Shown piece by piece: positions 22,706-56,747 of a stretch of DNA of 64,000 nt. Position 1 is the first letter of the stretch; the number at the start of each line of letters is the position of its first letter. Position numbers and translations under genes: made by a program. Below the pieces are notes generated by a model, which saw only the letters and a program-made list of their open reading frames with translations, had not been told where the DNA came from and searched no databases. This stretch comes from Gnetum montanum (taxonomy: Eukaryota; Plantae; Gnetophyta): NCBI GenBank assembly GCA_015680685.1, contig MNCI01001065.1:74857-138856 (forward strand). Reading direction: 5' to 3'.

Positions 22706-22716
22706 TCCCTTATTTC

Positions 22717-22734
22717 TGATGCTACAAGAAGGGC
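22717..22734 (+). promoter_or_regulatory. Degenerate primer-binding site (tRNA-Asn type) of element D
   Basis: TGATGCTACAAGAAGGGC versus the intact TGGCGCTAGAAGGAGGGC at 61852. Confidence 0.7.
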
Positions 22735-27917: not shown

Positions 27918-30900
27918 TGGTTATCGTTGTATGTCGAAATCTTAAGGAAAATAGAGAACATAGAATATTTTTTGTGGATAATGTGTTTGCAGGACATGAA
28001 CAAGAATTCCACAATTAGATACAAGAACTCAATGAGATGAGATCTACAATGAGATGAAAAAGTAAAGACCACATAGGCAAGTTGAAAGTATGACAAGCAT
28101 GGACTAGAAATGAAGGCTACAAACCAATTGAATATGCTCTCAAGGCTAGGAAGAAGATGAATTGATAGGAGAAAGCCTTAGAAATCAAAGCCCAAGAATT
28201 AAGGAGATGTCTCCTAGAAATAGTATATGTCTCTACTCCAAGGAAGATGTCTCCCAAGAGACATCCCATAAGATATGTTCCATTTTCCAACAAGACATCT
28301 CTCTTGAATAGAGGTCATTCTTAAGTAAACATCCCAACTTTGAAGGAGAAGTTTACATTAGCCATTAGATAGCTATTGCACCAATTTTGAGGATTTTCAA
28401 AAACTCCAAGGCTATAAGAAGATACCAAATTCTTGGAAATTGTGCAAGTACTATTCACATCAAAGTAATCATTGTCATATCTAAGCTATTGTATTCTTGT
28501 TGTTCATTATATCATTTACTTGGTTGTATGTTGTATTAAGCTTCAATAACAATGACTTGTAAATTTAGTTACATTCTTTCCTTGTATCTTTTTATTTTTT
28601 CTTGGTGCCTTGTAGGGTTGATGTGCTTCTTGCAAGAAGGGATCCACATTGAGCTTGTTGGGACCTTATGGGGTTTAATGGTTTTGCAGTGTCAAAACAC
28701 TATGGAGTCAAGCTCAATTTTGTAAAGGCTGTTGTATTCTTGAAATCACATTCTAAGTTTGTTGGGACCTTGCAAGTTTAAGTGGTTTCATAGCAACAGA
28801 ACAATCTGGTGTGTAGCTAAAATCTTGCATAGGGTGTGATGCCCTTCAAATCATATTTGATTGAGAAATAAAGTTCGAAGGTGTGCACAAATTCTACCCT
28901 TTGAATGTGGAAGTACCCAATTTGGAGAACCATGTAAAATTTTATGTTTTTGTATGGTAGGTACAATTTAAATTGAAAAATTCTTCACCCCCCTCTTCTA
29001 ATTTCTCATGTGGTATTGGAGCCTAGTACTCTTACATTCGGCTTCAACTTTCAAGAGTGAACTATGGAGGGGACATCCTATACAAAGTCACCAATGTTTG
29101 ATGGGCTCAGTTTTTCTTATTGGAAGGCAATGATGCAAGGCTTCTTCGTGTCAATGAAGCTTGAGGTATGGAAGTCCATTCTTGAAGGCTACATACCACC
29201 TATCAACAATGAAATTAAGGTCATTAATCCATGAAGCAAGTGGACATCAAAAGAAAGAGATAAGTTCATGTATGATTCTAAAGCAAAAAATTGTTTATAT
29301 TATGCATTAAATAAGTTAGAATTTAATAGAGTAGATGGATGTAGAACCAAAGAAATTTGGAAAACCTTAGAATCTACCTATGAGGGCATGTCCATAGTTA
29401 AACAATCAAAGCTCTTGGTTTTGCAAAGTGAGTAGGACAAACATAAAATGAGGGAAGGAGAAAAGATAAAGGATTATTTTTCTAGGGAAAACGATCTAGT
29501 CCTAGCTATTAGGAGTCTAGAAAAATACTTGCATGAAAGTGATGTCATTATTAAAATGATTAGAACACTACAACCTAAATTTAGAACTAAGTTTACAACT
29601 ATGAAAGAAATTAGGGATTTTTCAATCTTAAAATTTGAAGAACTTCAAAGTACTCTCATTGCCTATGAGATGAACCTCATAAGTGAAGAAGCAATAAAAG
29701 AAAATTCCATTGCCCTAAAATCAACATCTAATGAAAAGGAACCAGCTAAGCAAGAGGTGAACAATGAAGAGGAAATAGGTCTTCTATCAAGAAGAGTTCA
29801 AGGCTATTAGCAAGAAAGGAAAGAAGCCTCAATCAATCAAAATCCAACCAATCCAACTCCAAAGAAAAGGATAGAGGTAAAAATTATTCAAATTCTAATT
29901 TTGATGCTTTTTCAACAGAATGTTTGGTATGTGGTGGAAGAGGTCATGTGGCCTTTGAATGTCCTAGAAATGGTAGATTATCACAAAAGAATAAGATTGG
30001 AGTGGACATAAAGAAGACCAATTTCTACACAAGTTGGGATGATGAAGAGCAAAGTGAAGAAGAGGTTAATCACACCATGAAAGATTCTTAGCTTATATGT
30101 ATGGCACTTACAAATGAAAATTCATCACATATTTCTAATGAACCAAGAGGTAAGTATTATGAGAGGTATTGTGAACTATGTGAAGAAATTCTTATCCTAC
30201 ATTATTTACTCAAAAATGTAAAGAAAAATATGAGTAGAAAGTTTTTGAAATTCATATCTTATCTTCAAAATTAAAAGATGAAATCTTATATATAAAAGTT
30301 GAGACTCAACTACTAACCCTGTTAGATGAAGAGAAATGCAGGGACAATCAAGAAGAAGGGGTAAGTAAAAATAATGAAATTCATCCTAGAAGTGAAAGCT
30401 TGGAAGAAACCCCACAAAATTATATGGGTACTAACTCAAGTATAATCAAGTTTGATGACTCTATTCTTGGAAAAAACACTTTAGTTGTTTGTAAAAATTT
30501 GGATTTAAATAAAATTATGATTGTCCTCATATTAGACAAAATAACATTGATTCTTGGTCTTGTCAAAAGAAACCTAATAAGTGTATCTTGTAGGATGAAG
30601 CAACCTAGAATGAGAATGAGCTAAAAGTTGAAAAAATATTTAGGAGAATGGATGATATAGTAGATGATCATAGATTCTCTTATCTTGAATAACATGAACA
30701 ACAAGGGCTACCATACAAAAGAACTAATGAAACAAAATCAAAGGGTAAGGAGGTACTCCATGATAGAGGACTTCATCTCAAACTTCATTAGTATTTTTCA
30801 TCTCAATATGCAAGTAAGGTAAGTCATGGTAAGTTTCTATTTCCATACTTGTTAGTTAAAATATGGGTTTGTTTTAAAATATTTTATGAATTTTTTTATG

Positions 30901-30981
30901 GAAACATATATCTTTATTCATAGGAAAGGAAATAAAAATGGTATGGCTATCTTTGATGCTTGAACTATTTATGTTGCTTAT
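27918..30981 (+). mobile_element. Copia (Sirevirus/SIRE-like) gag-only element, copy C1: LTR 27918-29008, PBS 29011-29023, gag from 29064; interrupted by element E
   Basis: LTR ends TTCACCCCCCTCTTCTAATTTCTCA; PBS TGGTATTGGAGCC (tRNA-iMet type). gag: MEGTSYTKSPMFDGLSFSYWKAMM, EIWKTLESTYEG, MREGEKIKDYF, and zinc knuckle CLVCGGRGHVAFEC. Confidence 0.9.
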
Positions 30982-31704
30982 TGTTGATACATTTAAGCCA
31001 TTTTATGGAGGAAAATTTATGAATTAATTTTTGGGTTTTATTAAAATCCAAATGTTATTGATGAATGCAAGATAGAATACAAGAATAAAAAGGAAAATTT
31101 TCATGGGAGTTTAGTTACTCTGTTTGTAAAAGGAAAATAAATTAACATGTTAATGAGAATGTAATGTGTCTACTTTCATAATCAATGGAACATGGTTTCT
31201 ATCTTAACTTCCCATTGACCTAAGTGAAAGTCTTTATAAAGAGACAGACAATAATACTATAGTTGCTAATTTTAATCAAATGGCTAAGTGGTAGATAGCA
31301 AAGGTACTTATGATCATTTAGGTTTAGTTGAAGTTTTGAAAGATGAATATATCTTCTACAAGCTAAAATATTGTGAATTTAGAAGACACTAGAATTTGCC
31401 AGTTACAGAGAGTGAATAATCATATGAACAATAAAAGAAAATTTCACAAGGTTATGGAAAAACATGGAATGCTGCTAAATTTTTCACAACTTACCATTAT
31501 TTGCACATAATGGTTTTTGAAGTATACACTATCCACTATGTAAGCTATGGAGATTTGGCTACAAGGGAGTGCAGAGTTTAACAAAAAAGCCTTTCCAAAT
31601 TCACAAATTTTTTATGAGAAACCATTAGAGCATCATCTAGAATTTAGAAATAAATAATAAAAACTCAAGCAATCACAAATGTAAATCACATCCTTGAGAA
31701 AAAG

Positions 31705-34396
31705 TGTTGGTGACCGTTTAGGACGCGACCGCCAACGAGTGGACTCGAACAGGATTTAGGTGCCTGCTGGTCTCTGGCAACACCAAGGCCTAGATACCTC
31801 CAAAGAAACTTAGTAGTTAATGTGAGTATGTGTGTGTGCTGTTGCGGCGTGTGGTTGTGTAAAATGTAACAATTGCGTTGTGTNNNNNNNNNNNNNNNNN
31901 NNNNNNNNNNNNNNNNNNNNNNNNNNNNNNNNNNNNNNNNNNNNNNNNNNNNNNNNNNNNNNNNNNNNNNNNNNNNNNNNNNNNNNNNNNNNNNNNNNNN
32001 NNNNNNNNNNNNNNNNNNNNNNNNNNNNNNNNNNNNNNNNNNNNNNNNNNNNNNNNNNNNNNNNNNNNNNNNNNNNNNNNNNNNNNNNNNNNNNNNNNNN
32101 NNNNNNNNNNNNNNNNNNNNNNNNNNNNNNNNNNNNNNNNNNNNNNNNNNNNNNNNNNNNNNNNNNNNNNNNNNNNNNNNNNNNNNNNNNNNNNNNNNNN
32201 NNNNNNNNNNNNNNNNNNNNNNNNNNNNNNNNNNNNNNNNNNNNNNNNNNNNNNNNNNNNNNNNNNNNNNNNNNNNNNNNNNNNNNNNNNNNNNNNNNNN
32301 NNNNNNNNNNNNNNNNNNNNNNNNNNNNNNNNNNNNNNNNNNNNNNNNNNNNNNNNNNNNNNNNNNNNNNNAAAAATGAAATGCATAACTCACAGGACCA
32401 TGACAAAGAGGCTGAAATCTTTATTCTAGCAAGCCATCTTGCAAGCAATCGTCACAACTTTCTTCTTTACAAAATGCTCTTCTCCCAAGACTCAAAGTAT
32501 CTCCAAGTAAGAGCCCAAGTGATAACTAGTAGCCTTCAAAATATGATGTATGAGACCCCAAGTGTGATGTGAGAAGTGATGTAAAGCCTTTTTATAGGGT
32601 TCCAAGGTAGGTAGGTAAGTTATATGTTTAAAAATATCTCACCTAACTTCTGTCCCAAGTAACTTGGCCAACCAATTAGGAGATTACTTGGCCAACAAGT
32701 TAGGAGGTTACTTGCCCAACAAGTTAGGTAAGTTACAACAACTTTGGGTGGTTTTAACCACCAAAGAAATAAAAATGCTATAGTTGACAAGTGTCCCATG
32801 TGGTTGCCAAGTGTCTTCATTCAGTTGCCAAGTGTCTTCATGTAGTTGCCAAGTGTCTTCATGCAGTTGCCAAGTGGCCCTTGTAGTTACAATATAAAAT
32901 TAAAATACAATCTTTAAGATATATAGGAATACTAGTTGTAAAGTTACAATTTCAAAATATCCCCTTTTATTTTACTTCTCCAAAATGAGATGTCAAGTCT
33001 TATAAGTGATGTATAGGGGAGTTACAATTTCAAAATATCCCAAAAATATCTCAAAAATATGTCTCCTAACTTATTTCTCAAGGAATTTGATGAACCAATC
33101 AGAAGATTACTTGTCCAACAAGCTAGGGGTAGGTTATGTGGTTAGGGAGTTAAGAAGTTATGCATAAAATGAGGAGCATTTTATGCTAACCTTAATGAAA
33201 TGTGACATAAAATAGGACAACCAATATTGCAAAATTTTTAATAGGAGTAACTTATATGTTTTAAAATAATATATTTCATAACATAAGATAATTGATGGCA
33301 GGTCTCTAAGTACTTCATGTTATGAATACTTCATATTGTGAATATATATGTATCTACATGGATATTATACTGGTTAATTTATACTCTATTTGACCATATG
33401 CTTGAGCGGTAGAAATAATTGAATAATTTTTTGGAAAAGAAACGGTGAAACGATTTTCCTTCTCTTCCCTATAAATCGCATGGAGGTTTCCTCACAGTTC
33501 CAAGGCAACAGTCTTTCTCTTATTTCTGCCCAAAACTTGCAAGAACCGACACATGTTTGCATAGAATTTGAAATGCAGCATCAGCAAAACCGCGGATTCA
33601 AACTGCCTCCGCACAAGAAGGCTCTGCAACCGTAATCCATTTTTGCCGTCGCGCGCTGGAGAGAGAGGGGTTTTTCTGAAGAACAACGTGCCCCAAACAG
33701 AGGGTTTTAATTTCTATTTTGCCCTCAAAATTAATTTAGGGCTTCCTGCATTTTTCTGTTTGCCTTTTCCTACGTTTTTTTTTTGTTGCCTCCCTACATT
33801 TTTTTTTGTTGCCGAATTTCAGGCTAATATTTTGAAGATCTTCGTCCGGCGGATCCACAGCCTGCATCATAAAAAAGAAAGAAGAAAAACACCACGGCCT
33901 GCAGGGCATAACCCCTTTCCTCACGTGTTGTGTAAATGAGGGTTTCAAAATTTGTTTCTGAGTCTGCGCTAGGGTAAACATCGCGGTGAATGGTGTTGTG
34001 CATTTTCTTGCAACACGGTCTTCTTTTCCTTCACTGTTTTTCTCTTCCGCAGGTGTAGTTTACGGTGGAGATTGATTTGCCTTCTCTTTCTCTTTTTCTT
34101 TAACCTTAAAACAATGAAGGTGTTACTGGTTTTGTTACATTTTGATTTTGTCTTGCAAGGATATATCCGGGTTTTGGACAACCGGGATCTGCAACTTTAA
34201 TAATTTCTCATGAATCACATACTCCCTTCCTTGGCCATAGTACTAATTTCTGATTTTAATAAAGAGATAATTTGGCACCTTTACCTCAACACCCAACCTT
34301 CAACATTAAAACTGAAATTTACTTGTGCCAACACAACCATAGATTCTTCCAATAAAATATTTCAACTGATCCATGGAATGGCCAAATGTGCCAAGA
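31705..34396 (-). mobile_element. Solo LTR (~2.7 kb including gap) of the TGTTGGCACATTT family inserted in the 5' LTR of E
   Basis: 5-bp TSD AAAAG (31700-31704 / 34397-34401) and termini TGTTGG...CCAA(G)A. The empty site is seen in E's 3' LTR (CCTTGAGAAAAAGAAAGATGG, ~44219-44240). rc of 31705-31805 matches E's LTR end 36420-36560. Confidence 0.9.
32790..32880. repeat. 21-bp tandem repeat (GTTGCCAAGTGTCTTCATnnn, ~4 units) in the solo LTR
   Basis: Directly visible. Confidence 0.85.
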
Positions 34397-36916
34397 AAAA
34401 GAAAGATGGATTTTTGCAAAATAATGAAAACAAACATCACCTGATTATTGCAAATGAGTAACATTGAGATTTAGAAAATAAAAATACAAACCTAAGAAAT
34501 ATTTCTCATTCAGCAAAATTAGTAGAACCCATCAGAAGAGGAGGATATTTTGAGTAAAACAAAGAATATTTAAATAATAAACAAAATTTAAAATCCCAAG
34601 CTCAGGTTCAGGGCTTCACAAATTCATGAATGGGCAACAACACCACAACAGTATTTTGTTTTAAGGTCTAACACGATGTTAGGATCAGTAAAGGAAACAT
34701 TGAAACCCCTACAATGGAGGTGTAACTAAAAAATATTTGTCGACCTTAACTACAACAATAAAGAAAAACAAGGCCTTCCTCGATTGGATCAAGCTAGAAC
34801 CCAATGCTAACACTTGTGGCTTAGGCAAAGCCATTATCAATGATAATAGCACAACAACAAGCATGTTAGCAACATGGCAATGAAGGCAATGATGATGCAA
34901 CTGGAAGACATCACCAACAAAGGGCTAGGGAGCATCTGTGGCTACTTGGTAGAAACATCAAAGTTAAAGTAGGGCAAAACAAATGATAGGGTTACCTCCA
35001 AACACAAGAAGAGGATGAACGGTGCATAGTACTAAGACCATGGGATATGAACATACCTTCAAATGATTACACATCTTACATAGATGTGTTAATGAATATC
35101 ATGTTAAGGCTATGATGCCTTAATAACATATATATATATATTGGATTAAGAAAGAAGGATTTATGAATGTGTGATAAATATAAATTTATTTTTTGAAAAA
35201 TTTTCATAGGAAGTTAGACTTAATTCTCCTTGCTATTTGTAATCTCTTATGAGACAATTGTCAACTATGGCTTAAATTTCTAATAGAAGTTACAACTTCT
35301 AAGGTGGTTATGAATTAATCCTCTAGATATTTGCAAATACCCTTAATTTTTCATAATGTTTGTAACTGCCTAGAAGCAACTATAAATAGAGCTCCAAGGG
35401 TAGAAAGAAGGGAGATTTGGAGGTGGAGCAACTTTAAAGAATATTGAAGATTTCTTATAAAGCATGGCTTGTTAAAGACATCAATTCAACTACTTTGTTT
35501 TAATCTTGTGAGTTCATTTCTTCTAATTTTTTTTTAGTTACTTAGCTAATAGTTTAGATAGTAGTGCGCTTAGCATTTAATTTTGGGATTTTTCTAGGTT
35601 ATCTTTATAGCTCTATTTTTGTGCAATATTATACTTCTATTAAGGATTTCCATATAAGAGCTTATGTTGTAGAAATGCATCTTGAGCATTTTAATAGTAA
35701 TGTATTAATGAAATTACCTCTTTGAGCATAGAGAATCTAGAAAAAACTTTGGTATTTTGAGATGACCAAAATAACTTCATTATTTTAAAGTGTATTTCTT
35801 TGGTATTTTAATCCTGAAATTGTCAAAATTTTAAGGCTCTATTGAATGCAACTCTTGACAACTATTAACTAGCCAAAATAGAAGCTCATACTTTTTTAGT
35901 TACGAAGCATTTTTGGTAGTGTAATAAGATTTTTCTTTACGAAATTACTTGTTGAGCTTAGAGGATTTGGACAATTCGTAGTTGGATTGAATAACTTTAT
36001 TATGAAGTGTTTCCTTGTGTCAATTTATCTTGCTTAAATATTTGATATTTCACACAAATCTACTTGCTTTTCTTTCTCTTTTTAAGTCCATTGAACCTTG
36101 CCCTATTTCTAGTTTTCTTGTGGAATTTTCTCTCTGGGGGAAATTAGAAGTAGATTGATACAATTGTGCTCAAATGTTTTTGTAAAATTTTATTTGTTAC
36201 AAGTAATGCACTATAAGGACTATATACACTAAGTGATTTGACAAAATAGAAACCTTCAACAACTCATAGTATTTGATAAAGTTAGTTAAATTTCTTTTAT
36301 GATAGTCAATTATAGTCAATTATAGTTACTTTGATAGTATTTGATAAACCCCACCATTTTAACATTCACAATAGCAAATACATACTTACTTTTAGTTCAT
36401 TTCATAACCACTTAGTCTATTTGGAGGTATATTGGCCTTGGTGTTTCCAAAGACCAACAAGCACCTAAACCCTATTTGAAAAACACCTTCATTTCCCATG
36501 ATCCCAACTTCGTGAGACCCAGAGGCTCACAACATTGGTGATTCCAAATGGTCAGCAATAGTTCTTTTTGTGCAGAAGGAGGGCAGAAACGTTTGTCAAC
36601 TAAGTTTATCAGCCTAATAGTCCTAGCACACCAAAAATTCTTTTGTAGCTAGGAGGGCTTAAAAATTAGATACTATTTTGGGTTCATGACCAAATAGACT
36701 TATAGTTTAGAAGAGTTAAAAGGTTCCAAAAAATTCTTGATTATAAGACTAATTACTCATTAGAGGAAGAATAGAAGAAGGTTCTTCAGTTTAGGACAAG
36801 TAGTGAAGTAAAGACTAGAAGGATAAGAAGTTCACATTTTCTATCTGGTTTATTAGTCTACAAGAGAAAGTCAAAGAAATATAAAAGTTCAACAATAAAA
36901 AAGAATTCTAATAGGA

Positions 36917-39900
36917 TGACAAATCCTTGACAAAGAGTTAAACCATTAGGATTTCAAAACTATAACATATTCCTAAGGCAGTTTACAAATATTTATCTGA
37001 GCCTTTTATTCCTAGAAAAGCATACTTAGCTAAAGAATACCTTATTTGAGTTAGCTTTAGCTCATGCAAATGTTCAACATCAAGATCAATCTTGTAGATT
37101 ATTTATAGCAAATTTAAAAGATATGGCTCAATTTTGGTATTCAAACTTGCTAAGCAACAATATCATGAGTTAGGATGATATGAAAAATCTTTTCTTGGCT
37201 TAGTTTGGCAATCAATTGATCAATAGCAACTATACTATGGGCTAGTATGAGCTAAGAAAGGAGTTAAAGAGTCTATTAGAGATTTCAACATTAAGTTTTA
37301 AAGAATTATGGACTCTTTCAAAGACAGTATAGACCATCAAACAAAATGCTTAAAGATACTTATCTTAAGGCTGTAAATCCCAATATTTTAATTTGGTTAA
37401 GAAGAAATCCCAACTTGATAACATTGAATGACTATTTTAGTGAAGCTATACAATTAGAAAAATAGTTGAACTTGAACAATGAAGGAATTATCACAACTCA
37501 AAAAAGAAAAGAAAAAATGATAATTCATGTGCAAGATTTTGCTCAACTTAAAGCAAGACTAGGACCATCTCATATTAAGATAGAGCAAGAGTCTGAAAGT
37601 AGAGAATCTAAAAAAGAATAATTAATAAGAGACTTGTCTAACAAAATAGTGAAACTAGAAAAATCTTTGGCAAAGGTTAAAATCAAGGAAGAAAAGAAAA
37701 AAAAAACATAAACATCAAGTTACTAAGTTAGTAGAAGATGAGGATGAAAATGACCTTATTATGTCTAATTTCCTTGATATTGAATCAGATAATGAGCTAT
37801 CTAATGAAGAGTTTTGAAGAGGATATATCATCAAATGAAGAGTGTAATAATAATGAAGAAAATGGGTATAGTTTATGATCAAAAGAAAGATTAACTAATT
37901 CCAAGCCTCCAAATGCCATTTCTTATTCATCTACTAAGAGGAAGGTTTTTGAACTAAGTAGAAGAGAAAAACATAAAAGTAAAGAAGATTAAGTAGAGAA
38001 AAGTACTCAAAATCAATCTTTTAATAAATGGATGAAGAAACCAGGCTTTTATGAAGATGGAGTATATGATTTGATTGAAGATTTCAAACATGTTAGGATC
38101 AATATTAGTATATATCAATTATCACAAATAGAAGATCAACAAAGAAAATATTTAGAGCTTATTAAAGGTAAAAAGAGAGTTGCAGAGTTAGAGTTAAGCT
38201 ATGTGTCTAACATTGATAAGACAACGAAAACTAGCTATGATTGTACTCCTAATAAAGGAGCTCCTCCTTTTCTTTTGGTAATGAAGTTAAAAGAAAAATA
38301 TCTTCACAATTTTCTGGTTGATTCTGGAGCTACATCTACTATCATGCCATTGTTTATGTGCAAAAAACTTGATTTGACTTCCAAAAAATCCAATTAAAAG
38401 ATTGTTCAAGTGGACAACAGTAGAGTGAATATTTAAGATCAGTTGTTAAATATTTTATTTGAAATTGCTTCTAAACCTCATACAACATTTAAAGTAACTA
38501 TTCAAGTAGCAAATATACCAGATTCACATAGTCTTTTACTGATTAGAAGTTGGAGTAAGAATGTCTCAAGTTACATATCAACAAATTATTCTCATATGTG
38601 GCTACCTTGGAAAGGTGAACCAAATCAACATTACTTCAAATGGGAAAAACAAAGTTGTTAAAAAAACTCTTTTGAATCCAAAATTTGCACACCCCAAGAA
38701 GTTTATAACATGGAAAAAGATAAAGTTCAAGTTGAGAGCAAGTGGGAACCATACTTTAATGGTTCTTGTCACTCCAAAGGTGCAGGAGCTAGAGTAGTTA
38801 TAGTAAAGGATGATTCTCCACAAATATTCAAGGCAATTCATCTATCTTTCCCTTGTATGAATAACAAGGCTAAATATGAAGCTTTAAGCATTAGTATTAA
38901 AGTAGCATTGAAAATGGGGATCAAGGTTATCACCATAAAAGAAGATTCAAGATTAGTCTGTGAATAGGTTAAAGGAAATTGTGTAGTAAAAAGCTCATTC
39001 TTGTGACCTTATAAACAACTTGTTTGCAAAATATAGGATCAATTTTGTTACTACCAAATAGAAAATATAGTTAGGAAGGATGATTATATACCAGATGACT
39101 TAGCAAAGGCAACTTCAACGTTAGATATGATAAAAATAGAAGGATACAAAGGGATAACAATTGAGAAAGAACATTAGTCATTGGTACCAAATAATATAAA
39201 GAATTTACAAGTATTCGAAGATGATGATCAATTGCTAAGATTCTTAAGGTATAAACAATAATTCAAAGGTCAAATCATACCTAAAATAGCATCAAAGTTT
39301 AAGGAAAATTCTATTCTTAAAGAGGTGATTGATTATGAACATGAGTTTAGCAAAAATTAGCTTATCAGAAAAGATATACCAAATCTAGATGATCAAGCTT
39401 ATGAAGCAATAAATTCTAGATCTACTGAGATACCAAAGATATTAAATGTTACAAAGGAAAAGAATTTAGCTTTTAGGCAAAATTCATTATTAGTCCTAAA
39501 AAATAATTTGGAAAATTTTGTTTGGTCTTATGATGATCTTAAAGCCTTTAGACCAAATGTAATGACACATAAAATTCCTTTGTTAAACAGTTGTAAGATG
39601 GTTAAACAAAAATATAGGAAATTTAATCCATCATTTGAGCCAACTATGGAAGTTGAGATCAAAAAGTTATTGCAAGTCCAAATTATATATCCAATCCAAT
39701 ATTCAACATGGCTTGCTAACCTTGTTTTAGTAAGAAAGAAGAATGGCAATATTAGGCTTTATGTAGATTTCAAAATTTTGAATGAAGCCTTTAAAAAAGA
39801 TAAATACCCACTTTCTAAAATTGATGAAATTTTTATCAAATTAACAAGTTGTCAAGTATATTATTTTCTAGATGGTTTTTCAGGCTATAACCAAATCATG

Positions 39901-42160
39901 GTAGATAAGGGTGATAGATATAAAACATCATTTATCACTAAATGGGAAACTTTCACATACCAAAGAATGCCATTTGGATTGTCAAATGTTAGAGCTACTT
40001 TTCAAAGAGCAATGGATTTATCCTTTAAAGGTTTAATAGGCGAGTTTGTGGTCATTTATTTGAATGGTATCACTATCTTTTCAAAAAGAAGAAAGATCAT
40101 ATTGATCATCTTCAACAAATTTTTGATAGATGTTATGATTATGGTATTTCATTAATTCCTAAGAAATTCATCATTAGGGTTAAATCTAGAAGTTTACTAG
40201 GCCATATAATCTGTCAAGAATAAATTGCTATAGATAACTCCCAAATTTAAGTAGTGCAAAATATCGAACATCCTACAAGTAAAAAGTCTCTTAGATTTTT
40301 CTTTGGAAAGATAAATTTTGTTAAGAAATTTATCCCTAGATTCACTAAAATTACTAAACCTTTCATGCATATGCTTAAGAAAGATATCCTAGTAGAGAAA
40401 ATGCCAAAATCTAAGAGAGCCTTAGCAAAAATTAAAAGGGCTATTCAAGAAGCTCCTTTCTTGGTAAAACCAAAATTGAAGAAAGATTTTTGTTTATATG
40501 CTTTTACTTCACATAATTCAATTATTGCCATTTTAACTCAAAAATATGAAGGTCAAGATGAACCAATTGGATTTTTTGGATATCAATTAAAAGGTTTAAA
40601 ATGAAATTATTCAAACTTAAACAAAGAAGCATTTGTAGTCATTAAAGCACTTTAGCATTTCAAATATTACTTGAAAAGATCATTAGTTCATATTATGCTA
40701 ATAGAGCCTACGATTAAACAATTCTTAGTCCAAAATGAAATTAGATTAAAAAGAGGGAAGTGGCTCATAAAACTTTAAGGTTTTAGGTTTTCATTGGAAA
40801 TATGCAAAACCATTAAAGGAATGAGATTAGCCAAGTTAATGGCTAGAGAAGATGATGTGTGCTTAAGACTCATGAAGGAAACTAGTATGATGAAATTCTC
40901 AAATTCCTTAACACAAGAAAGGTTCTAAATAACCTAACTACAAGTCAAAAGAGAGCTTTCTTCAAAATAGAAAATAAATTTATGGTTAAAGATGGAATTT
41001 TATACAAACAGGATTTTAGAGGGGTTTTGTTGAAATGTGTTCACAATGATCAAATCAGTCCTATTCTAGAATAATTCCATGATAATTCTAACTCATTTTA
41101 TGAGTCTTCTAAATCCACTATGCAACATATACTCCGCTATGGTTTTTATTGGCCTAGTATGTACTAAGATATTAGTTTAAAGATTCAAAGATGTTACAAA
41201 TGTCAAATACATGAACCAAAAGTCAAAAAGGCTAGAACTCCCTTAAAACTAGTAATTGCGAATAGACTATTTTAGCAATGGGGCTTAGATTTTATCAGCA
41301 TAATTACTTCTTTAAGAGTTAGACATAAGTTTATTCTCACAACTACTGATTACTTTACCAAATGGTTTGAAGTAAAGGCTTTAAGGAAAAGTCCAGCATC
41401 AGATATGATTAAGTTCTTGGAAGATCAAATTCTAAGGCGTTTTAGTCTACCTAAAGTGTTGGTATTAGATAATGGACTTACTTTTCGATCTAAAGAATTT
41501 ATAACATGGGCATCAAAAAAATTCATCTTTCTATTTCCTCCTTCAAATTATTATCCTCAAAGGAATGAATTAGTTGAATATACAAATAAAAAGATTTCTT
41601 TTTTCTACATTAAAAATTTGATGGATGGGAATCTATGAAATTGGATTGATTACTTATAATCTACATTATGAACTGATCATATTAGATTTAAGAATGCTAT
41701 TGGGACATCAACTTATAACTTATTATATGGTTTGCCTACAAGAGTTATGAATAAGATTATAAGTTTAGCCTCAAATTTTGTGCAAAAGTATAGTGAAAAA
41801 ATCAATAAAGATAGAAGCTTCATGATCCTTCTCATTGAAAGAGAAGTTGAAATGGATAGAGTTAAAGATAATTTATTAAAGAATGCTTCTGAAGTCAAAA
41901 GGTGGTTTGATAGAAAGGCTTTGAAAAGGACTTTTAAAGTTGGTGATCTAGTATTATTATAGAATATGAAGAAGCCAAATAATTTTNCGGTGATCTAGTA
42001 TTATTATAGAATATGAAGAAGCCAAATAATTTTTTAGCAATATGGACTAGTCCATCTTAGATCAAGAAGCAAAGATTGGAATATACATACAAGTTATTGA
42101 TGTTAAGCAGGATGGAATTGCAATTTCCATATAATGTTTTACATATAAAACATTACTTTG
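36917..42160 (+). pseudogene. Element E gag-PROT-aRH-RT-RH-INT relic
   Basis: PROT: HNFLVDSGATSTIMP. aRH 38740-39120: WEPYFNGSCHSKGAGA..CMNNKAKYEAL..EDSRLV. RT: FLDGFSGYNQI, MPFGLSNVRATFQRAM. RH: FFGKINFVKKFIP. INT: LRYGFYWPSM, DYFTKW, DNGLTF, YYPQRN, FKVGDLVL. Confidence 0.95.
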
Positions 42161-42624
42161 GGAAACTGCCCATAACTTAAATACATATGTAAATCAATAA
42201 TAGATACATGTATATAATAATAAAAAGATAATTACATTAGTAATACTATGTATACAAGGTAGTTAGAGATTATATATATATATANNNNNNNNNNNNNNNN
42301 NNNNNNNNNNNNNNNNNNNNNNNNNNNNNNNNNNNNNNNNNNNNNNNNNNNNNNNNNNNNNNNNTTCTATGACATCTAATCATAATATATGTACATATAT
42401 CTCATACATATGTTTAGGCACGATATATAATATTATAAAATATGTATACGTTAGAGTATTAGTTTAAACATTAAATTTAAAGTGTTAGTTTAAATATCAA
42501 GTTTATATTATCTTAAAGTAATCATTACTTGTGATGTGTGCAAGTGGGAGTAGTGGTTTAGATAAATACATAATGGTGAATTAATTTTAACAACCAAATA
42601 GTGGAATTTGAATTAGCTAACCAT

Positions 42625-43300
42625 ATGATGATGGAAATTAAACAAGTTTGGCTAAGTAGGAAAGTTGGTTATTGGAATTGGCGAGAATTTCAAACTTACG
42701 TCGCACTATATAAAGAGATGTGAATTGCTTGGAAATACATCATTTCTAAATTCAACACTTGAGTGAGAGAAGCAAGTGAAGAGGTAGAAATATGGTTCTT
42801 GGATAGATGGCAATAAGAAGGCTTTTTATCCCATATGTTACAAGATTTTTCCCAAAGCATGTCTTGAGAGCCTATTATAAAACAACCACTCATGGAGCAT
42901 CTAGTGAAAGCCCTTTCTTACTTCGGATTTCAAATGATTTTAGAGTTCTTACTGGTGGACTCTTAATACATTCCAATGTTTGAAGCAACTTTCATCAATG
43001 CACAACAAAAGCTAAATGATAAGAAGATTTCAATCAAGATGATTCTTTGGGAAAGGCTTTTGTATCTTAAGACATAGATGTAACTAGTTGGGAAGAACCA
43101 AAAAAATTAGTGGCCAAAGAGTTGAATCAAAAAGAGACAAAGAAAGTTGTTAAAGACAAGGGTGAAGAAGTTGAAGCTTCAACTAGGCAAGAAGAAGAAA
43201 GAATGACATTCATCATTACTAAGATTACATATGAAAGGATTCATAATATTAGAATCCTAAAAAGGATTACCTTAACTATTGTCTTTCCACCTACAAATTA
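42625..43300 (+). pseudogene. Degenerate extra ORF between integrase and 3' LTR of element E, function unknown
   Basis: MMMEIKQVWLSRKVGYWNWREFQTYVALYKEM*IAWKYIISKFNT*VREASEEVEIWFLDRWQ*EGFL... The stops are TGA/TAA, consistent with CGA/CAA deamination. Confidence 0.5.
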
Positions 43301-45861
43301 GTTTGTATAAACTTGTTTGTACAGTTTCCTAATTTTTTTCTTAAGGGTGAGGTTTTTGTTTCATCATAAGTTTGGAGAAAGTTTTCCTCAAAAAGGATTT
43401 TTGTTTTTATTACATCTAATAAATTCCTATTTTGATGATAGTTTAGCTAGTGTGCATTGAAGAATTTTCTTGAATATCTTAAGTTCTTAAGGAATTTTAG
43501 AATGCAGAATGAAATGTTGACACATTTACACCATCTTGTGAAGTAGAATTTATGAATTAATGTTTGGGTTTTATTAAAATCCATTTGTTATTGGTGAATG
43601 CAAGATAGCATCCAAGTAGAAAATGGAAAAATTTCATGGGAGTTTAGTTACTTTCTCTATAAAATGAAAGTACATTAACATGTTAATAAGTAGTGTGTCT
43701 ACTTGCATCATCAGTGGTGCCTGGTTTCTATGTTGACTTCTCATTGACCTAAGTGAAAGTCTTTATAAAGAGAAGGACAATAATACTATAGTTGTTGATT
43801 TTAATCAAATGGCTAAGTGGTAGATAGCAGAGGTACCCATGATCATTTACCTTTAGTTAAAGTTTTAAAAGATGAATATATCTTTTGGAAATTGAAATAT
43901 CATGAATTTAGAAGATACTTTGGAATCTACCAGTTGCAAAGAGCAAATAATCATATGAGCAATAAAAGAAAATTTCACAAGGTTATGGAAAAACATGGAA
44001 TGCTATTGAATTTTTCACAAATTGCCATTATTTGCACATAATAGTCTTTGAAGTATACAGTGTCTACTATGTAAGCTATGAAGATTTGGCTACGAGTGTA
44101 GAGTTTAACAAACAAGCCTTTCCAAACTCACAATTTTTTTGTGAGAAACCATGAGAACATCATCTGGAATTTAAAAATAAACAACAAAAATTCAAGCTAT
44201 CACAAACGTAAATTGCATCCTTGAGAAAAAGAAAGATGGATATTTGTAGAATAATGAAAACCTACATCACCTGATTGTTTCAAATAAGCAACTTTGAGAT
44301 TTAGAAAATAGAAAAAATAAAAAAAATATTTCTCATTCAACAAAATCAACAGCATCCATCAGAAGCAAAGGAAATTCTAAGTAAAACAAAGAATATTTAA
44401 AAACAAACAAAATTTAAAAGTCTAGGCTTAGACACAAGCTGCCATGAATTCATGAACAGGCCACAACGCCAACACAGTATTTTGTTTTCAGGTCTAACAT
44501 GGTATTAGGGTTGGCAAAGGTGGCATTAAAACCCTTACAATGGAGGCGTAGCTAGAAAAATTTGTTGGCCCCAACTGCAACGATAAAGAAACACATAACC
44601 TTCCCCAACAATATCAAGCTAGAACCTGATGTTGATGCTTACGGCTTAGGTGGAGCCATTATCAACAATAACAACTTGACAATAATTACAGCAACAAAGC
44701 TATCATAAAGGCAATGACGACATTACTACAAAACTTTGCCAGCAAAGGGCTAGGGAGCATCTATGGCTACTTGGTAGAAACGGCATCAAAGTTGAAGTAG
44801 GACACAGCAAATGTTAGGGTTACCTCCAAACGCAGGAAGAGGGCAACGCAGTGCGTGGTACCAAGGCCACGGGAAATGAACATATCTTCAAATGATTACA
44901 CATCTTGCATAGACAAGTTGATGAATGGGATGTTAAGGCTACGAGGCCTTAATCATATATATATAGCAAAAATTTAAAATTGGGTAGGGCTTATGGATTA
45001 GGAAAGAAGGATTTATGAATGTATGATAACTATAACTTTATTTTTGAAAACTTTTCATAGGAAGTTAGAATTAATTCTCAATATTTGTAATTTTTTATGA
45101 GACACTTGCCAACTATGGCTTAAATTTCTAATAGAAGTTACAACTTCTAAGGTGGTTATGTATGAATCCTTTAGATATTTGCAAACACCCTTAATTTTTC
45201 ATGATGTTTCTAACTACCTAGAAGTAACTATAAATAAAGCTTCAAGGGTAGAAAGAAGGGGGATTTGAGGGTGGAGCAACTTTGAAGAATATTGAAGATT
45301 TTTTGTAAAGCATGACTTGTTAAAGAAATTAGTTTAGCTACTCTGTTTTAATCCTGTGAATTCATTTCTTCCCAGTTTGTTTTTAGTTACTTAACTCATA
45401 GTTTAGATAGTATTATGGTTGGTATTTAATTTTTGGATTTTTCAAGGTTGCCTTTATAGCTCTATTTTTGCATAATATTCTACTTCTATTAAGGATTTCC
45501 ATATAAGAGCTTATGTTGTAGAAAAGCATCTTGAGCATTTTAATAGTAATGTCTTAACAAAATTGCCTATTTGAGCATAGAAAATCTAGGAAAATCTTTG
45601 GTATTTTGAGATGACTAAAATAGCTTCATTAATTTAAAGTGTATTATTTCAATCCTAAAATTATCAAATTTTTGAAGGCTTTATTGAATTTAATTCTTGA
45701 CAACTATTAACTAGCCAAAATAGAAGCTCATACTTTATTCTTTATGAAGCATTTTTGATAGTGTGATAAGATTATTCTTTATGAAATTGTTTGTTGAGCT
45801 TAGAGGGTTTGAACAATTCATAGTTGGATTGAATTGAAATAGCTTTATTATGAAGTGTTTT

Positions 45862-47120
45862 TGTTGGCACATTTTTACCATTTCATGGAACAGGTGGACT
45901 TATTTGCAAATGGTGAGGTACATAATCCTAATGAACTGAAACTGTTCAAGGAGGATTATGTTCTTTTTTGTAAAGAATTCTGCAACAGTTAATTAACCAT
46001 GAAGTTGGAATAGAAATGAAAATGTTGCTGAATTGAATGTTTTGAAAATCAAGGGATAATGACATTGCAATTGGGAATGTTGGCATGAGGGTTTATCTAG
46101 AGTCAAAAGAAAATGGTGTATCAATTGTAGATATCTCTCTAGCTTATGATAGAGTAGCTCTAGTTACTTTTTNNNNNNNNNNNNNNNNNNNNNNNNNNNN
46201 NNNNNNNNNNNNNNNNNNNNNNNNNNNNNNNNNNNNNNNNNNNNNNNNNNNNNNNNNNNNNNNNNNNNNNNNNNNNNNNNNNNNNNNNNNNNNNNNNNNN
46301 NNNNNNNNNNNNNNNNNNNNNNNNNNNNNNNNNNNNNNNNNNNNNNNNNNNNNNNNNNNNNNNNNNNNNNNNNNNNNNNNNNNNNNNNNNNNNNNNNNNN
46401 NNNNNNNNNNNNNNNNNNNNNNNNNNNNNNNNNNNNNNNNNNNNNNNNNNNNNNNNNNNNNNNNNNNNNNNNNNNNNNNNNNNNNNNNNNNNNNNNNNNN
46501 NNNNNNNNNNNNNNNNNNNNNNNNNNNNNNNNNNNNNNNNNNNNNNNNNNNNNNNNNNNNNNNNNNNNNNNNNNNNNNNNNNNNNNNNNNNNNNNNNNNN
46601 NNNNNNNNNNNNNNNNNNNNNNNNNNNNNNNNNNNNNNNNNNNNNNNNNNNNNNNNNNNNNNNNNNNNNNNNNNNNNNNNNNNNNNNNNNNNNNNNNNNN
46701 NNNNNNNNNNNNNNNNNNNNNNNNNNNNNNNNNNNNNNNNNNNNNNNNNNNNNNNNNNNNNNNNNNNNNNNNNNNNNNNNNNNNNNNNNNNNNNNNNNNN
46801 NNNNNNNNNNNNNNNNNNNNNNNNNNNNNNNNNNNNNNNNNNNNNNNNNNNNNNNNNNNNNNNNNNNNNNNNNNNNNNNNNNNNNNNNNNNNNNNNNNNN
46901 NNNNNNNNNNNNNNNNNNNNNNNNNNNNNNNNNNNNNNNNNNNNNNNNNNNNNNNNNNNNNNNNNNNNNNNNNNNNNNNNNNNNNNNNNNNNNNNNNNNN
47001 NNNNNNNNNNNNNNNNNNNNNNNNNNNNNNNNNNNNNNNNNNNNNNNNNNNNNNNNNNNNNNNCTTGTAAGATGATTTGCTAAAGAAAAGATTTCAACCT
47101 CTTTGTCATGGTCCTGTGAG
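45862..47120 (+). mobile_element. Another TGTTGGCACATTT-family LTR inserted in the 3' LTR of E, mostly lost in N gaps
   Basis: E LTR homology stops at TATGAAGTGTTT and TGTTGGCACATTTTTACCATTTCATGG begins. The island 47063-47120 matches 8313-8370. Confidence 0.75.
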
Positions 47121-48089
47121 NNNNNNNNNNNNNNNNNNNNNNNNNNNNNNNNNNNNNNNNNNNNNNNNNNNNNNNNNNNNNNNNNNNNNNNNNNNNNNNN
47201 NNNNNNNNNNNNNNNNNNNNNNNNNNNNNNNNNNNNNNNNNNNNNNNNNNNNNNNNNNNNNNNNNNNNNNNNNNNNNNNNNNNNNNNNNNNNNNNNNNNN
47301 NNNNNNNNNNNNNNNNNNNNNNNNNNNNNNNNNNNNNNNNNNNNNNNNNNNNNNNNNNNNNNNNNNNNNNNNNNNNNNNNNNNNNNNNNNNNNNNNNNNN
47401 NNNNNNNNNNNNNNNNNNNNNNNNNNNNNNNNNNNNNNNNNNNNNNNNNNNNNNNNNNNNNNNNNNNNNNNNNNNNNNNNNNNNNNNNNNNNNNNNNNNN
47501 NNNNNNNNNNNNNNNNNNNNNNNNNNNNNNNNNNNNNNNNNNNNNNNNNNNNNNNNNNNNNNNNNNNNNNNNNNNNNNNNNNNNNNNNNNNNNNNNNNNN
47601 NNNNNNNNNNNNNNNNNNNNNNNNNNNNNNNNNNNNNNNNNNNNNNNNNNNNNNNNNNNNNNNNNNNNNNNNNNNNNNNNNNNNNNNNNNNNNNNNNNNN
47701 NNNNNNNNNNNNNNNNNNNNNNNNNNNNNNNNNNNNNNNNNNNNNNNNNNNNNNNNNNNNNNNNNNNNNNNNNNNNNNNNNNNNNNNNNNNNNNNNNNNN
47801 NNNNNNNNNNNNNNNNNNNNNNNNNNNNNNNNNNNNNNNNNNNNNNNNNNNNNNNNNNNNNNNNNNNNNNNNNNNNNNNNNNNNNNNNNNNNNNNNNNNN
47901 NNNNNNNNNNNNNNNNNNNNNNNNNNNNNNNNNNNNNNNNNNNNNNNNNNNNNNNNNNNNNNNNNNNNNNNNNNNNNNNNNNNNNNNNNNNNNNNNNNNN
48001 NNNNNNNNNNNNNNNNNNNNNNNNNNNNNNNNNNNNNNNNNNNNNNNNNNNNNNNNNNNNNNNNNNNNNNNNNNNNNNNNNNNNNNNNN

Positions 48090-51000
48090 CATTTCCCAAC
48101 AAGACACCTCTCCTTAATAGAGATCATTCTCATGTAGACATTCCAACTTCAAAGGAGACATCTACATTAGTAGTTGGGTAACCATTGCATAAATTTTGAG
48201 GAATTTTTGGAAACTCCGAGACTATAAGAATATACCAAATTCTTGGGAATTGTGCAAGCACTATTCACATCAGAGAAATCATTGTCATATCTAAGCTATT
48301 GTATTCTTGTTTTTCATTATAACATCATTTGCTTGGTTGTATGTTGTGTTGAGCTTCAACAGTAAGGACTTATAAATTTAGTTACATTCTTTCCTTGTAT
48401 CTTTTTTTTTCTTGTGCCCTATAGGGTTCATGTGCTTCTTGTGAGAAGGCATCCACATTAAGCATGTTGGGACCTTATGAGGTTCAATGATTTTGCAACA
48501 TCAAAACACTTCAAAGTGGAGCTCAATTTTGTAAAGGTTGTGGGATCTTTGAGACCACATTCTGAGCTTGTTGGGACCTTGCAAGGTTGAGTGTTTTTGT
48601 AGCAATGAAAACACTCTAGTGTAAAGCTTAGAGCTTGTATAGGGTGTGGTGCCCTTTAAACCATATTTGAATGAGAAACAAAGTCTAGAGGTGTGCATGG
48701 ATTCTACCCTCTAAGTGTGGAAGTACCGAAGTTGGGAAACCACAAAAAATTGTGTTTTTTTGTGTTAGGTACAATTTAAATTAGAAACTTATTCATCCCC
48801 CTCTTCTAAGTTCTCGATTCTCAAGTGATATTGAAGCCTAGTACTCTTACATTCAACTTCAAATTTCAAGAGTGAACTATGAAGGGAACCTCCTATACAA
48901 ATCCACCAATTCTTGACGGGTTCAATTTTACTTACTAGAAGGCAAGGATGTAAGGAATCTTTGAGTCAATGGAGTTTGAGGTATGAGAGTCCATCCTTGA
49001 AGCTACACACCACCTAGTGACAATGCAACTAAGGCCATCAAGCCACAAAGAAAGTGGACATTAGAAGAAAGAGATAAGTTCATGTACAATTCTAAAGAAA
49101 AAAATTATTTATAGTGTCCATTAAATAAGTTTGAATTTAATAGAGTAGATGAATGTAGAATAGCCAAAGAAATTTGGAAAACCTTAGAAGCAACCTATGA
49201 GGGTACATCCATAGTTAAATAATCAAAACTCTTGGTTTTGCAACATGAGTACGATAAAATTAAAATGAGGGAAGGAGAAAAGATAAAAGATTATTTTTCT
49301 AGGGCAAACAATCTAGTCATAGCTATTAAAGATACAGGAAAAAACATGCCTGAAAGTGATGTAATTATTAAAATGATTAGAACACTAGAACTTGAATTTA
49401 GACCTAAGGTTACATCTATGGAGGAAATTAGGGATTTTTCAATCTTAAAATTTGAAGCACTCCAAAGTGCTCTCATTTCCTACTAGATGAATCTCATATG
49501 CGAAGGAGCAATAAAAGGAAAGCCCATTGCCCTAAAATCAGCATCCAAAGAAAAGGAACCAGTTGAATAAGAGGTGAACAACAAAGAAGAAATAGCTCTT
49601 CTATCAAGAAGAGTTCAAAAACTTCTAGTAAGAAAGGAAAGAAGCCTCAATCAATTAAGACCCAACCAATCCAACTCCAAAGGAAAGGATAGAGGTAAAA
49701 AATTTTCAAATTCTAATTTTGATGCTTTTTCAATAGAATGTTGGGTATGTGTTAAAAGAGGCCATGTTGGCTTTGAATGTCCTAGCAATGGCAAGTTATC
49801 ACAAAAGGATAAGACTAAGATGGACATATAGAAGACCAAGTTTTACACAAGCTGGGATGATGGAGAGCAAAGTAAAGAAAAGGTTGATAACACCATGAAA
49901 GATTCTTAGCTTATATGTATGGCACTTAAAAATGAAAATTCATCACAAATTTTTGACGAACCAAGAGGTAAGCATGATGATAGGTACAATGAATTATGTG
50001 AAGAAAATATTATCCTTCATTATTTACTCAAAAAGGTAAAGAAAAATATAAGTAGAAAATTTTCTGAAATTCATATCTTATCTTCCAAATTAAAAGGAAA
50101 AATATTAGACATAAAAGCTAAGATTCAACTATTAACCTTTCTAGTTGAAGATAAATGTAGGGACAATCAAGAACAAGGGGTGAGTGAAAATAATGAAATT
50201 TAGCCCAGAAGTAGAAGCTTGGAAGAAATTCCACAAAAGGATACAGGCACTAGGTCAAGTGTAATAAGGTTTGATAACTCTATTCCTAAAGAAAACACTT
50301 TATTTTTTTGTAAAAATTGTGGATTTAAACAAGATTATGATTATCCTCATATTGGAAAAAATAACATTGATGCTTGACCTTGTCAAAAGGAACCTAGTAA
50401 GTGTATCTTGCAAGATGAAGCAACCTAGAATGAGAATGAGCTGAAAGTTGGAAAAATCTTTAGGAGAATGAGCTGAAAGTTGGAAAAATCTTCAGAAGAA
50501 TGGATGATACAGTAGATGACCATAGATTCTCTTAGCTTGAAGAACATGAACAAGAAGGGTTGCCATAAAAAAAATAATGAAAGAAAATCAAAGAATAAGG
50601 AGGTTCTCTATGATAGAGGACCTTATCTCAAACTTCATTAGTCTTTTTCATCTTGATTTGCAAGGCAAGTTATGGTAAGTTTTTTTTTCTTACTTGCAAG
50701 TTAAAATATGGGTTAGTTTTTGAGTATTTTATGAATTTTCTTTTGGAAACATATATCTTTATCCATAGAAAAGGAAATCAAAATAGTATGGCTATCTCTT
50801 ATGCTTGAACTATTTAAGTTGCTTACATATCTTTAAAAAGTTTATTCTTGAAGAAAAGCTAAATTTGAGAATCAAGAATGGCATAGCATCCATGTTTATC
50901 ATAAGATGCCACTAATTTAATAATTTGGAATACGTTCTATAGAAAATTAGTTAGTTGGCTAATCAATAAAGACAAATTTGTTATGATATGTTCCTACTAA

Positions 51001-56480: not shown

Positions 56481-56570
56481 AATATATAAAGCATCATATA
56501 AGTAATTAAGAAAAGGTCAACCATGTGCAAAAGAAAATGTATATCTTATTAAAAAATTGATAATGAGCTA

Positions 56571-56747
56571 TTAAATTAATAGAATTTCAATTGCGGTTTG
56601 TCGTAGATTTATACATAAATATAAATATACGTGCTCTTCCTAGCATCTTAGCCTATCTTGCTTTGACCATACAGGGAAGACATTTTAAATTAATAGAATT
56701 TCTATTGCGGTTGTCGTAGGTTTATACATAAATACAAATATACGTGC
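56571..56747. repeat. ~63-bp direct repeat upstream of the laccase
   Basis: TTAAATTAATAGAATTTC.ATTGCGGTT(T)GTCGTAG.TTTATACATAAATA.AAATATACGTGC at 56571 and 56685. Confidence 0.9.

Follow-up and report, generated by a model that had tools for sequence, protein, structure and literature searches.

Retrotransposons with fixed LTR ends and a variable U3 have been described repeatedly. In the accessible text of the respective reports, Tnt1/Retrolyc1 (PMC1838419), Del (PMC4029996) and crapaud of Podospora (PMC10787394) all combine a fixed tip and R/U5 with U3-defined subfamilies whose variation lies upstream of the TATA box; Del elements have a conserved U3 att site of 10 bp and a plastic 5' CpG island, and the variable U3 of crapaud is shorter than 200 bp. 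As far as these texts go, none of the three derives its variable U3 from coding genes of the host. Capture of host genes is likewise established: LTR-mediated retrocopies, arising by template switching onto mRNA, are partial, doubly truncated, poly(A)-less pieces, with several genes per element and subsequent amplification (Tan et al. 2016, PMC5131818), and maize Bs1 (cited in PMC13317346) carries amplified partial pieces of multiple host genes. Very many host exon fragments reside in gymnosperm transposable elements, LTR elements included (PMC13477047), and maize Sireviruses, Helitrons and Pack-MULEs also capture such fragments (10.1101/777037); position within the element is unspecified in the available parts of both sources. 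Finally, the LTR itself holds host-derived sequence in Cassandra, Helenus and Ajax (TRIMp3; PMC10886601), described there as short non-autonomous elements with one fixed small-RNA-derived promoter, and foreign sequence in BARE-2, acquired from another retrotransposon by abnormal template switching in what its report presents as a single event (PMC13317346).

Here we describe a window of 64,000 nucleotides from Gnetum montanum (contig MNCI01001065.1) in which four LTRs, A (starting at 6313), B (34396, minus strand), D (45862) and E (30982 and 43515), share, as LTRs of the Tnt1, Del and crapaud systems do, a fixed tip and R/U5, here around a variable U3 of more than 1.5 kb, and in which the U3 of A holds host coding fragments. 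As in the retrocopies of Tan et al. and in Bs1, these are partial pieces of more than one gene and have very likely been amplified; whereas the retrocopies, in the text available, replace part of the internal ORFs, the cargo here lies between tip and TATA box, a position in which it would be present twice per element and persist in solo LTRs. Whereas the TRIMp3 elements carry one promoter and BARE-2 sequence from another retrotransposon, the cargo here consists of varied protein-coding scraps of host genes in LTRs of 2.7-2.9 kb, and E encodes pol; an Rfam scan for tRNA- or 5S-derived sequence gave 0 matches in 6313-8472 (A) and 32372-34400 (B). Variable U3 and gene capture are thus each already known, and coding scraps within U3 are apparently a new combination: a literature search, with most subscription journals, figures and supplements outside its scope, returned no report of protein-coding cargo in U3.

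All four LTRs have a common tip of ~33 bp and a TATA/R/U5 core, with variation upstream of the TATA box, the layout of a U3-diversified LTR subfamily. The 28-mer from the start of A (6312-6339) was found again at 45861 (D; 3 mismatches) and at 30981 and 43514 (both E; 6 and 9); in 20 block shuffles there were 0 matches within 8 mismatches and 0.3 with 9. The B tip (34396, minus strand) is identical to A in 24 of 25 aligned columns, with a 1-nt gap. Against shuffle maxima of 37-44, the cores of A and B align at 86% over 277 columns (score 204), those of A and the E 3' LTR at 75% over 358 columns (score 161), and those of B and the E 3' LTR at 70% over 102 columns (score 52). The R block assigned to D (47064..47120, plus strand, between gaps) is, over its visible 57 bases, 89% identical to A and 88% to B, leaving E as a more remote subfamily (72-75% versus 86-89% among A, B and D). 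Tip-to-TATA distances are similar (1,714, 1,800 and 1,920 bp). Exact 21- and 23-base LTR patterns had 0 matches in metagenome contigs and 0 in viral contigs.

E is the element with both LTRs. Its 5' LTR (30982..36534, plus strand; 2,856 bp without B) has a boundary where a copia-like host element breaks off, is interrupted by B after 31704 and is followed by a PBS at 36535; its 3' LTR (43515..45861, plus strand; U3 middle about 43547-45079, TATA at 45229) is truncated by the insertion of D. The decayed internal region (36535..43514, plus strand) matches Pfam domains in the order protease, aRH (RVT_3, E 4e-8), RT (RVT_1), RNase H (RT_RNaseH) and integrase, and an aRH between protease and RT is the criterion for Tat (TatI/TatII), TatII being the gymnosperm clade in the accessible part of that work (PMC6317226). 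On sequence grounds we assign the four LTRs to one Tat-type Ty3/gypsy lineage, with A, B and D tied to E by LTR likeness alone. Between the E LTRs, K is 0.14 in the half of the middle that was compared (712 sites) and 0.12 in the core (738 sites); because the middle is present in both LTRs at core-like divergence, it was replicated as LTR. Searches with E fragments were blank in PDB and plasmids (two frames) and without a usable match in the atlas (one fragment). A point against the account favoured below is that no cargo was recognised in E, the sole element with both LTRs, and that the cargo-bearing A shows one incomplete LTR.

Nested within the E 5' LTR is the solo LTR B (31705..34396, minus strand; 2,692 bp, of which 488 are a gap of Ns). 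It has the 5-bp target duplication expected of an LTR insertion (AAAAG, 31700-31704 and 34397-34401), of which the empty site in the E 3' LTR has one copy, and one of its ends has decayed to TC. The CpG-rich part of its U3 middle (33370..34250, plus strand) carries a TATA-like box and an intron-like pyrimidine tract, both oriented opposite to the LTR; its CpG o/e is 0.80 versus 0.07 in the B core, and it had no Pfam or Rfam match. D, inserted within the E 3' LTR, is like A visible as a 5' part only: a tip (45862..45895, plus strand; 31 of 34 bases identical to A) and 277 bp of U3 middle (45896..46172, plus strand) before an 891-N gap. The best of 84 fragments tested, 46046-46171, weakly resembles the end of the xanthine-dehydrogenase FAD domain (PF03450, E 0.0039, 17.7 bits, under the cut-off of 25.5). 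A 120-sequence xanthine-dehydrogenase profile, for which the homologue search had supplied mostly bacterial fused enzymes, too distant to be decisive, aligned in register at -3.3 bits; the piece had no PDB match and no usable atlas match, and a word-based homologue search was empty (8 candidates). The piece may fit plant xanthine dehydrogenase. A splice-donor-like site lies at 45913, 17 bases into the D middle, and is canonical in related loose-end contigs; D's two coding-like pieces are ~60 bases apart. Such a site, like the promoter-plus-intron look of B, is not supplied by mature mRNA, a point against an mRNA route.

Between tip and core, similarity disappears. In 12 of 12 comparisons among the U3 middles of A, B, D and the E 3' LTR (both orientations), scores ranged from 24 to 38, with shuffle maxima between 30 and 45; even the highest z, 3.1 (B versus the E 3' LTR, opposite strand; score 38, null maximum 37), we do not count as homology. 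The preliminary description had proposed LTRs with a common short 5' end and a downstream TATA/R/U5 block around unrelated intervening segments; the tip and core alignments bear out the first point, and pairwise alignment against shuffles, named beforehand as a possible refutation of the second, gave no homology. Nor did the B and E middles align with other repeats of the window. A Pfam search of 84 stop-free U3 fragments gave 2 matches at E <=0.05, both within D (0 of 34 fragments in the B middle, 0 of 29 in the E middle), NCBIfam gave nothing notable, and nested TG...CA elements with 4-6 bp repeats (11 candidates in A, 6 in B) were at chance level. The cargo of A and B retains CpG (o/e 0.54-0.80) where the cores are depleted (0-0.07), but CpG alone is no marker of host origin because the B U5 end is also CpG-rich (0.90).

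A, which lies outside the coordinate range given in the preliminary description, is where host pieces can be identified. Its tip (6313..6345, plus strand), with a TG start, is likely the integrase attachment end, and is delimited by alignments and by contigs parting at 6345/6346. The left U3 middle (6346..6689, plus strand) had no notable Pfam, NCBIfam or PDB match. There follows, sense to the LTR, a broken fragment of a type II ribosome-inactivating protein (RIP), a ricin-type toxin (6690..7472, plus strand). A profile of 10 full-length RIPs matched with E 2.3e-31 over positions 236-481 of its 563 (<=0.4 bits for shuffled frames), PDB B chains at E 4e-16, and Pfam PF14200 was also matched. 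What had been called a RIP gene does have RIP homology, but is a 783-bp fragment comprising the end of the A chain, the linker and the first two thirds of the B chain, cut at both ends and with four in-frame stops: profile positions 1-235 and 482-563 were not found, nor was an A chain upstream of 6690. The RIP borders carry a 4-bp repeat, which is no more than expected by chance, and a word-based homologue search found none at near lengths (70 candidates).

Further downstream, a 92-bp island (7654..7745, plus strand), also sense to the LTR, is common to A and host poly(A) RNA: RNA reads match A at 7654-7745 only, with loose ends on either side (25 and 13 reads). Its sole PDB matches are to Arabidopsis SOQ1 (E 0.27-0.98), and at three of three checkable differences between RNA and LTR, read by hand, the RNA yields the SOQ1 residue; the island is therefore likely a coding piece of SOQ1, a chloroplast-protein gene, on that E value of 0.27 and those three residues. 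The A core (8049..8472, plus strand) has repeated enhancer-like motifs, a TATA box at 8233 and R/U5, and then a gap; a 3' end and target duplication of A were searched for and not found. By homology, the U3 middle of A is mosaic and includes coding fragments of host genes. Both identified fragments are truncated at both ends within coding sequence without poly(A), as retrocopies are, and both are dead as proteins; neither spans a known intron, so they offer no instance of intron loss, a point against the mRNA route. Two of two are sense to the LTR, or three of three counting the weak one in D.

Summed contig depth along A in three public genome runs, a rough proxy and not copy number, was 50,000-160,000 in the tip bin and 142,000-1,075,000 in the core (from 8100), 599-9,845 in the flanking middle (776-5,268 in its left part) and lowest, 48-707, at 6696-7475; the middle lies 10-1000 times below tip and core. 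The low-depth interval agrees with the RIP homology within one bin. In run X1, which contains just 0.44 of A's words, 27 and 13 contigs quit the tip alignment at 6345/6346, tip base 33-34; the 27 continue into mixed sequences (agreement 0.53) and the 13 into D sequence (27 of 30 bases identical to D's first 30 after the tip). Since A-type and D-type middles are found in many contigs, they are sub-lineage markers, not different cargo in every copy. Contigs 88-89% alike span the RIP 3' cut (7436-7615, 7421-7590 and 7374-7615); those bridging it in other species could be orthologues. At 7669, the RNA letter has a DNA depth of 6-18 against a total of 3,400-11,400, and the RNA-like form is therefore outnumbered by the LTR form by a factor of about 500-1,000. 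A search of public runs for A gave no RNA run among the matches listed.

It is highly likely that host fragments are carried and amplified in the U3 of this lineage. We favour an account in which the U3 middle between tip and core differs by sub-lineage and the host pieces in A arrived by template switching, then amplification; RNA template switching is, in our judgement, the probable capture route. Reverse transcriptase would slip onto co-packaged host RNA and back, leaving host coding fragments in U3 that would later multiply with the element as sub-lineages. Because U3 would be the first stretch copied once the strong-stop jump is made, a switch in it would reach both daughter LTRs and persist in solo LTRs; as integrase would need the tip and transcription the core, only the middle would tolerate replacement. 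Successive switches may add to earlier fragments or supplant them, producing nested sub-lineages (the SOQ1-like piece in many copies, the RIP piece in few), and the similar tip-to-TATA distances suggest that replacement is favoured over accumulation.

It is less probable, though still worth considering, that host DNA was pasted into the U3 of a chromosomal copy by break repair or gene conversion, with reverse transcription merely propagating it. The splice-donor-like site in D and its canonical form in related contigs, the ~60 bases between D's coding-like pieces and the antisense promoter-plus-intron look of B would all fit such a DNA route, yet unspliced RNA could also explain them. Furthermore, the RIP and SOQ1-like pieces both lie in the sense orientation of the LTR, and the breakpoints are concentrated at one base after the tip, a better fit to a replication step than to random repair. 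Inter-element switching on the BARE-2 precedent, as available in that report (PMC13317346), would make the B and E middles LTR pieces of other transposons, with host genes as occasional passengers. This we regard as improbable: the two middles indeed lack host matches, and the TATA and CpG-rich layout of B recurs in an unrelated LTR near 61000, but neither aligns with another repeat of the window, blank host searches are weak evidence with plant proteomes outside the searched sets, and A is left unexplained. Very improbable is the view that U3 simply diverged fast in the ordinary way, as it does in Tnt1, Del and crapaud, and that copy A, once integrated, received a one-off RIP insertion. In favour of this view, variable U3 between fixed ends is a familiar pattern, and a second LTR of A is not visible. 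Against it, A has a second host-like island whose depth exceeds that of the RNA-like form about 500-1,000 times, the RIP 3' cut recurs in other contigs, which already suggest several independent loci with both tip and RIP junction, and no nested TG...CA element exceeds chance in A or B.

Returning to capture by template switching, the proposal of a U3 cassette slot repeatedly acquiring host DNA holds for the variable slot, LTR replication (E) and host coding DNA (A), but not for new cargo in each copy, given the sub-lineages. Its author would have abandoned it had only the RIP matched host genes, and A also has the island common to host mRNA, likely SOQ1. The 'Pack-like' label fits the outcome and not the element type. 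In Pack-TYPE DNA transposons, terminal inverted repeats flank the cargo; here the cargo sits in direct LTRs, alongside a PBS and pol. A stronger reading, that the U3 of this very abundant lineage is a dedicated, length-limited capture cassette, a host-transcript mosaic per sub-lineage swapped 33 bases from the tip, with selection driving turnover, is tentative and rather doubtful; selection might act via new enhancers, or via small-RNA cross-talk with host genes that shields the element from silencing.

Where rapidly evolving U3 sequence comes from is left open in the available Tnt1, Del and crapaud work; here part of it can be traced to host genes. U3 cargo, which would be copied twice per insertion and outlast solo-LTR formation, could explain part of the ~400,000 captures that the accessible text of PMC13477047 gives for each gymnosperm genome. 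With silenced LTR copies hundreds of times as deep as the host exon they derive from, the epigenetic-conflict model could be tested on donor genes known by name, and ricin-like and other 'genes' annotated in such genomes may be LTR cargo. If the stronger cassette reading is true, the family would preserve a dated record of host genes across the genome and would also yield small RNAs directed at those genes.

The LTRs of one Tat-type Ty3/gypsy lineage, here called A, B, D and E, share their ends but differ in between. The roughly 33-bp start of U3 (the tip) and the TATA/R/U5 block (the core) can be aligned between all copies, at 86% for A and B, 75% for A and the 3' LTR of E, and 89% for A and D (in R), and the tip recurs in the window far above chance. 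The intervening middles, by contrast, give no alignment, with 12 comparisons scoring 24-38 against shuffle maxima of 30-45, bearing out the preliminary description of common ends and promoter block around unrelated middles. The tip lies 1,920 bp from the TATA box in A, 1,800 bp in B and 1,714 bp in the 3' LTR of E. The two LTRs of E have diverged similarly in the middle (K 0.14, over its first half) and in the core (K 0.12), showing that this middle was copied as LTR.

These copies lie in AT-rich, CpG-depleted plant DNA with nested LTR retroelements and assembly gaps. Element E starts at 30982, with a 5' LTR to 36534, the PBS next and a 3' LTR from 43515; its decayed internal domains run protease, aRH, RT, RNase H, integrase, an order that excerpts of PMC6317226 give as a hallmark of TatI (club-mosses) and TatII (gymnosperms), which makes a gymnosperm likely as the host. 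B (31705-34396, minus strand) is a solo LTR with a 5-bp target duplication, nested within E's 5' LTR; a second tip-like 10-mer in the same orientation (34326-34335), 60 bases within its 5' end, could represent a tip duplication. Most of D, whose start at 45862 falls within the 3' LTR of E, is gap. This nest sits between two copia-like copies (27929-30980 and 48090-53463) that are 84% alike. Neither D nor E has its end here, and the remainder of the first copia-like copy is likewise missing, suggesting a deletion or mis-scaffold at the gaps in 46173-48089. LTR A begins at 6313, and no 3' end was found for it; minus-strand gypsy pol remnants, identified by eye, follow its U5 immediately (9200-13200), where that end is apparently truncated. 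Elsewhere, another pair of Tat-like elements (class by eye; 22595-22734 and 61736-61869) has LTRs alike just over the last ~140 bp and the PBS region, with internal regions aligning at 67-71%, which points to LTR replacement in another family. A broken, CpG-rich laccase-like (multicopper oxidase) gene with introns also lies between retroelements (56481-60300), three of its exons matching PF07732/PF00394 (E 5e-11 to 8e-21).

The middle of A holds host-derived cargo. Positions 6873-7502 match type II ribosome-inactivating protein (RIP) B chains in a PDB search (E 4e-16) and 22 database representatives (best 36%), the top six being angiosperm lectin, RIP, ricin-like or unnamed proteins. A profile built from the 10 long sequences among the 22 extends the homology to 6690-7472 (E 2.3e-31, covering 236-481 of the profile's 563 positions; shuffled frames score no higher than 0.4 bits). 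The piece spans the A-chain end and the linker plus two thirds of the B chain, and carries four stops; what had been called a RIP gene is thus a fragment. Poly(A) RNA reads, read by hand, match short stretches of it and then continue into related lectin-like sequence, indicating that relatives of the piece are expressed in that run's host. Thin unbroken RNA coverage (3-7 reads, run X20) over the left middle and RIP piece (6540-7185) may have its source in another, related LTR copy or in a host gene.

Further along A, an island at 7654-7745 is the sole stretch here matched by RNA reads, whose loose ends are uniform on both sides (at least 25 and at least 13 reads). PDB matches for its frame are to Arabidopsis SOQ1 only (E 0.27-0.98). 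The printed alignment contains three RNA-versus-LTR differences (at 7729, at 7732 and in the codon immediately past 7745), and the RNA residue equals that of SOQ1 in 3/3; the other listed amino-acid differences precede that alignment. Judged from sequence, the island is likely a SOQ1 piece.

Sequencing depth along A, summed over contigs from three genome runs (organisms A, B and C) and not equivalent to copy number, reaches 50,000-160,000 in the tip bin and 142,000-1,075,000 in the core. It is 776-5,268 over 6384-6695, lowest (48-707) over 6696-7475, where the trough coincides with the RIP homology, and 599-9,845 over 7476-8021. Of total depths of 3,434, 11,440 and 10,932 at position 7669, the RNA-like letter accounts for 6, 12 and 18. 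Loose contig ends cluster at 6345/6346 (at least 27 contigs of mixed sequence); at least 13 further contigs leave there with a consensus equal to D's first 30 middle bases at 27/30 positions. Among the matches listed, the RIP 3' cut is spanned by contigs 88-89% alike. The RIP piece may have been inserted into an existing middle, or may instead have dropped out of a more abundant derivative. Run X1 contains 0.44 of A's words, so the window's own A copy may be missing from these runs.

The proposal that U3 is a slot taking up host DNA holds for A and is suggestive for D, while B and E returned no match. Of 84 fragments, the strongest hit comes from D, where 46046-46171 matches PF03450 (E 0.0039, with ~0.3 expected by chance); a separate, mostly bacterial profile aligns there in register, its score not significant. 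B's middle includes a stretch rich in CpG (o/e 0.80), where a TATA-like box and pyrimidine tracts are oriented against the LTR; it has no match in Pfam or Rfam, nor E's middle in the databases searched, both weak blanks given that plant proteomes lay outside the search. B also carries a duplicated enhancer-like repeat block upstream of its TATA (33053-33136 and 32630-32710, 80% alike), with short tandem repeats nearby (~32800-32870).

Conserved ends with a variable U3, as in A, B, D and E, are already described in the consulted parts of reports on Tnt1 (PMC1838419), Del (PMC4029996) and crapaud (PMC10787394). Excerpts likewise document small-RNA promoters as host sequence within LTRs (PMC10886601), BARE-2 as foreign TE sequence within an LTR (PMC13317346) and massive gene capture by LTR elements in gymnosperms (PMC13477047); captured genes are defined in part of PMC3726574 by location inside full-length elements. 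In the portion of Tan et al. consulted (PMC5131818), the captured piece lies within internal ORFs, whereas A's cargo lies in U3. Coding mosaics in U3 went unreported in the literature searched, a survey outside which fell figure 7E and the supplements of PMC13477047.

Most likely, in our analysis, the host pieces in U3 were acquired by RNA template switching, a reading drawn from standard LTR replication with a precedent in section 5 of PMC5131818, as excerpted. Both pieces (2/2) are in sense orientation, are cut within coding sequence and lack poly(A), and a single sharp break follows the tip. Counting against it are D's splice-donor-like site, B's promoter-like DNA and the lack of demonstrated intron loss; the main rival, capture at the DNA level with retrotransposition afterwards, seems to us rather unlikely. 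Under template switching, reverse transcriptase would jump, while copying U3, to a co-packaged host RNA and then back; the switched product would end up duplicated in both LTRs, and constraint would be limited to the tip and core.
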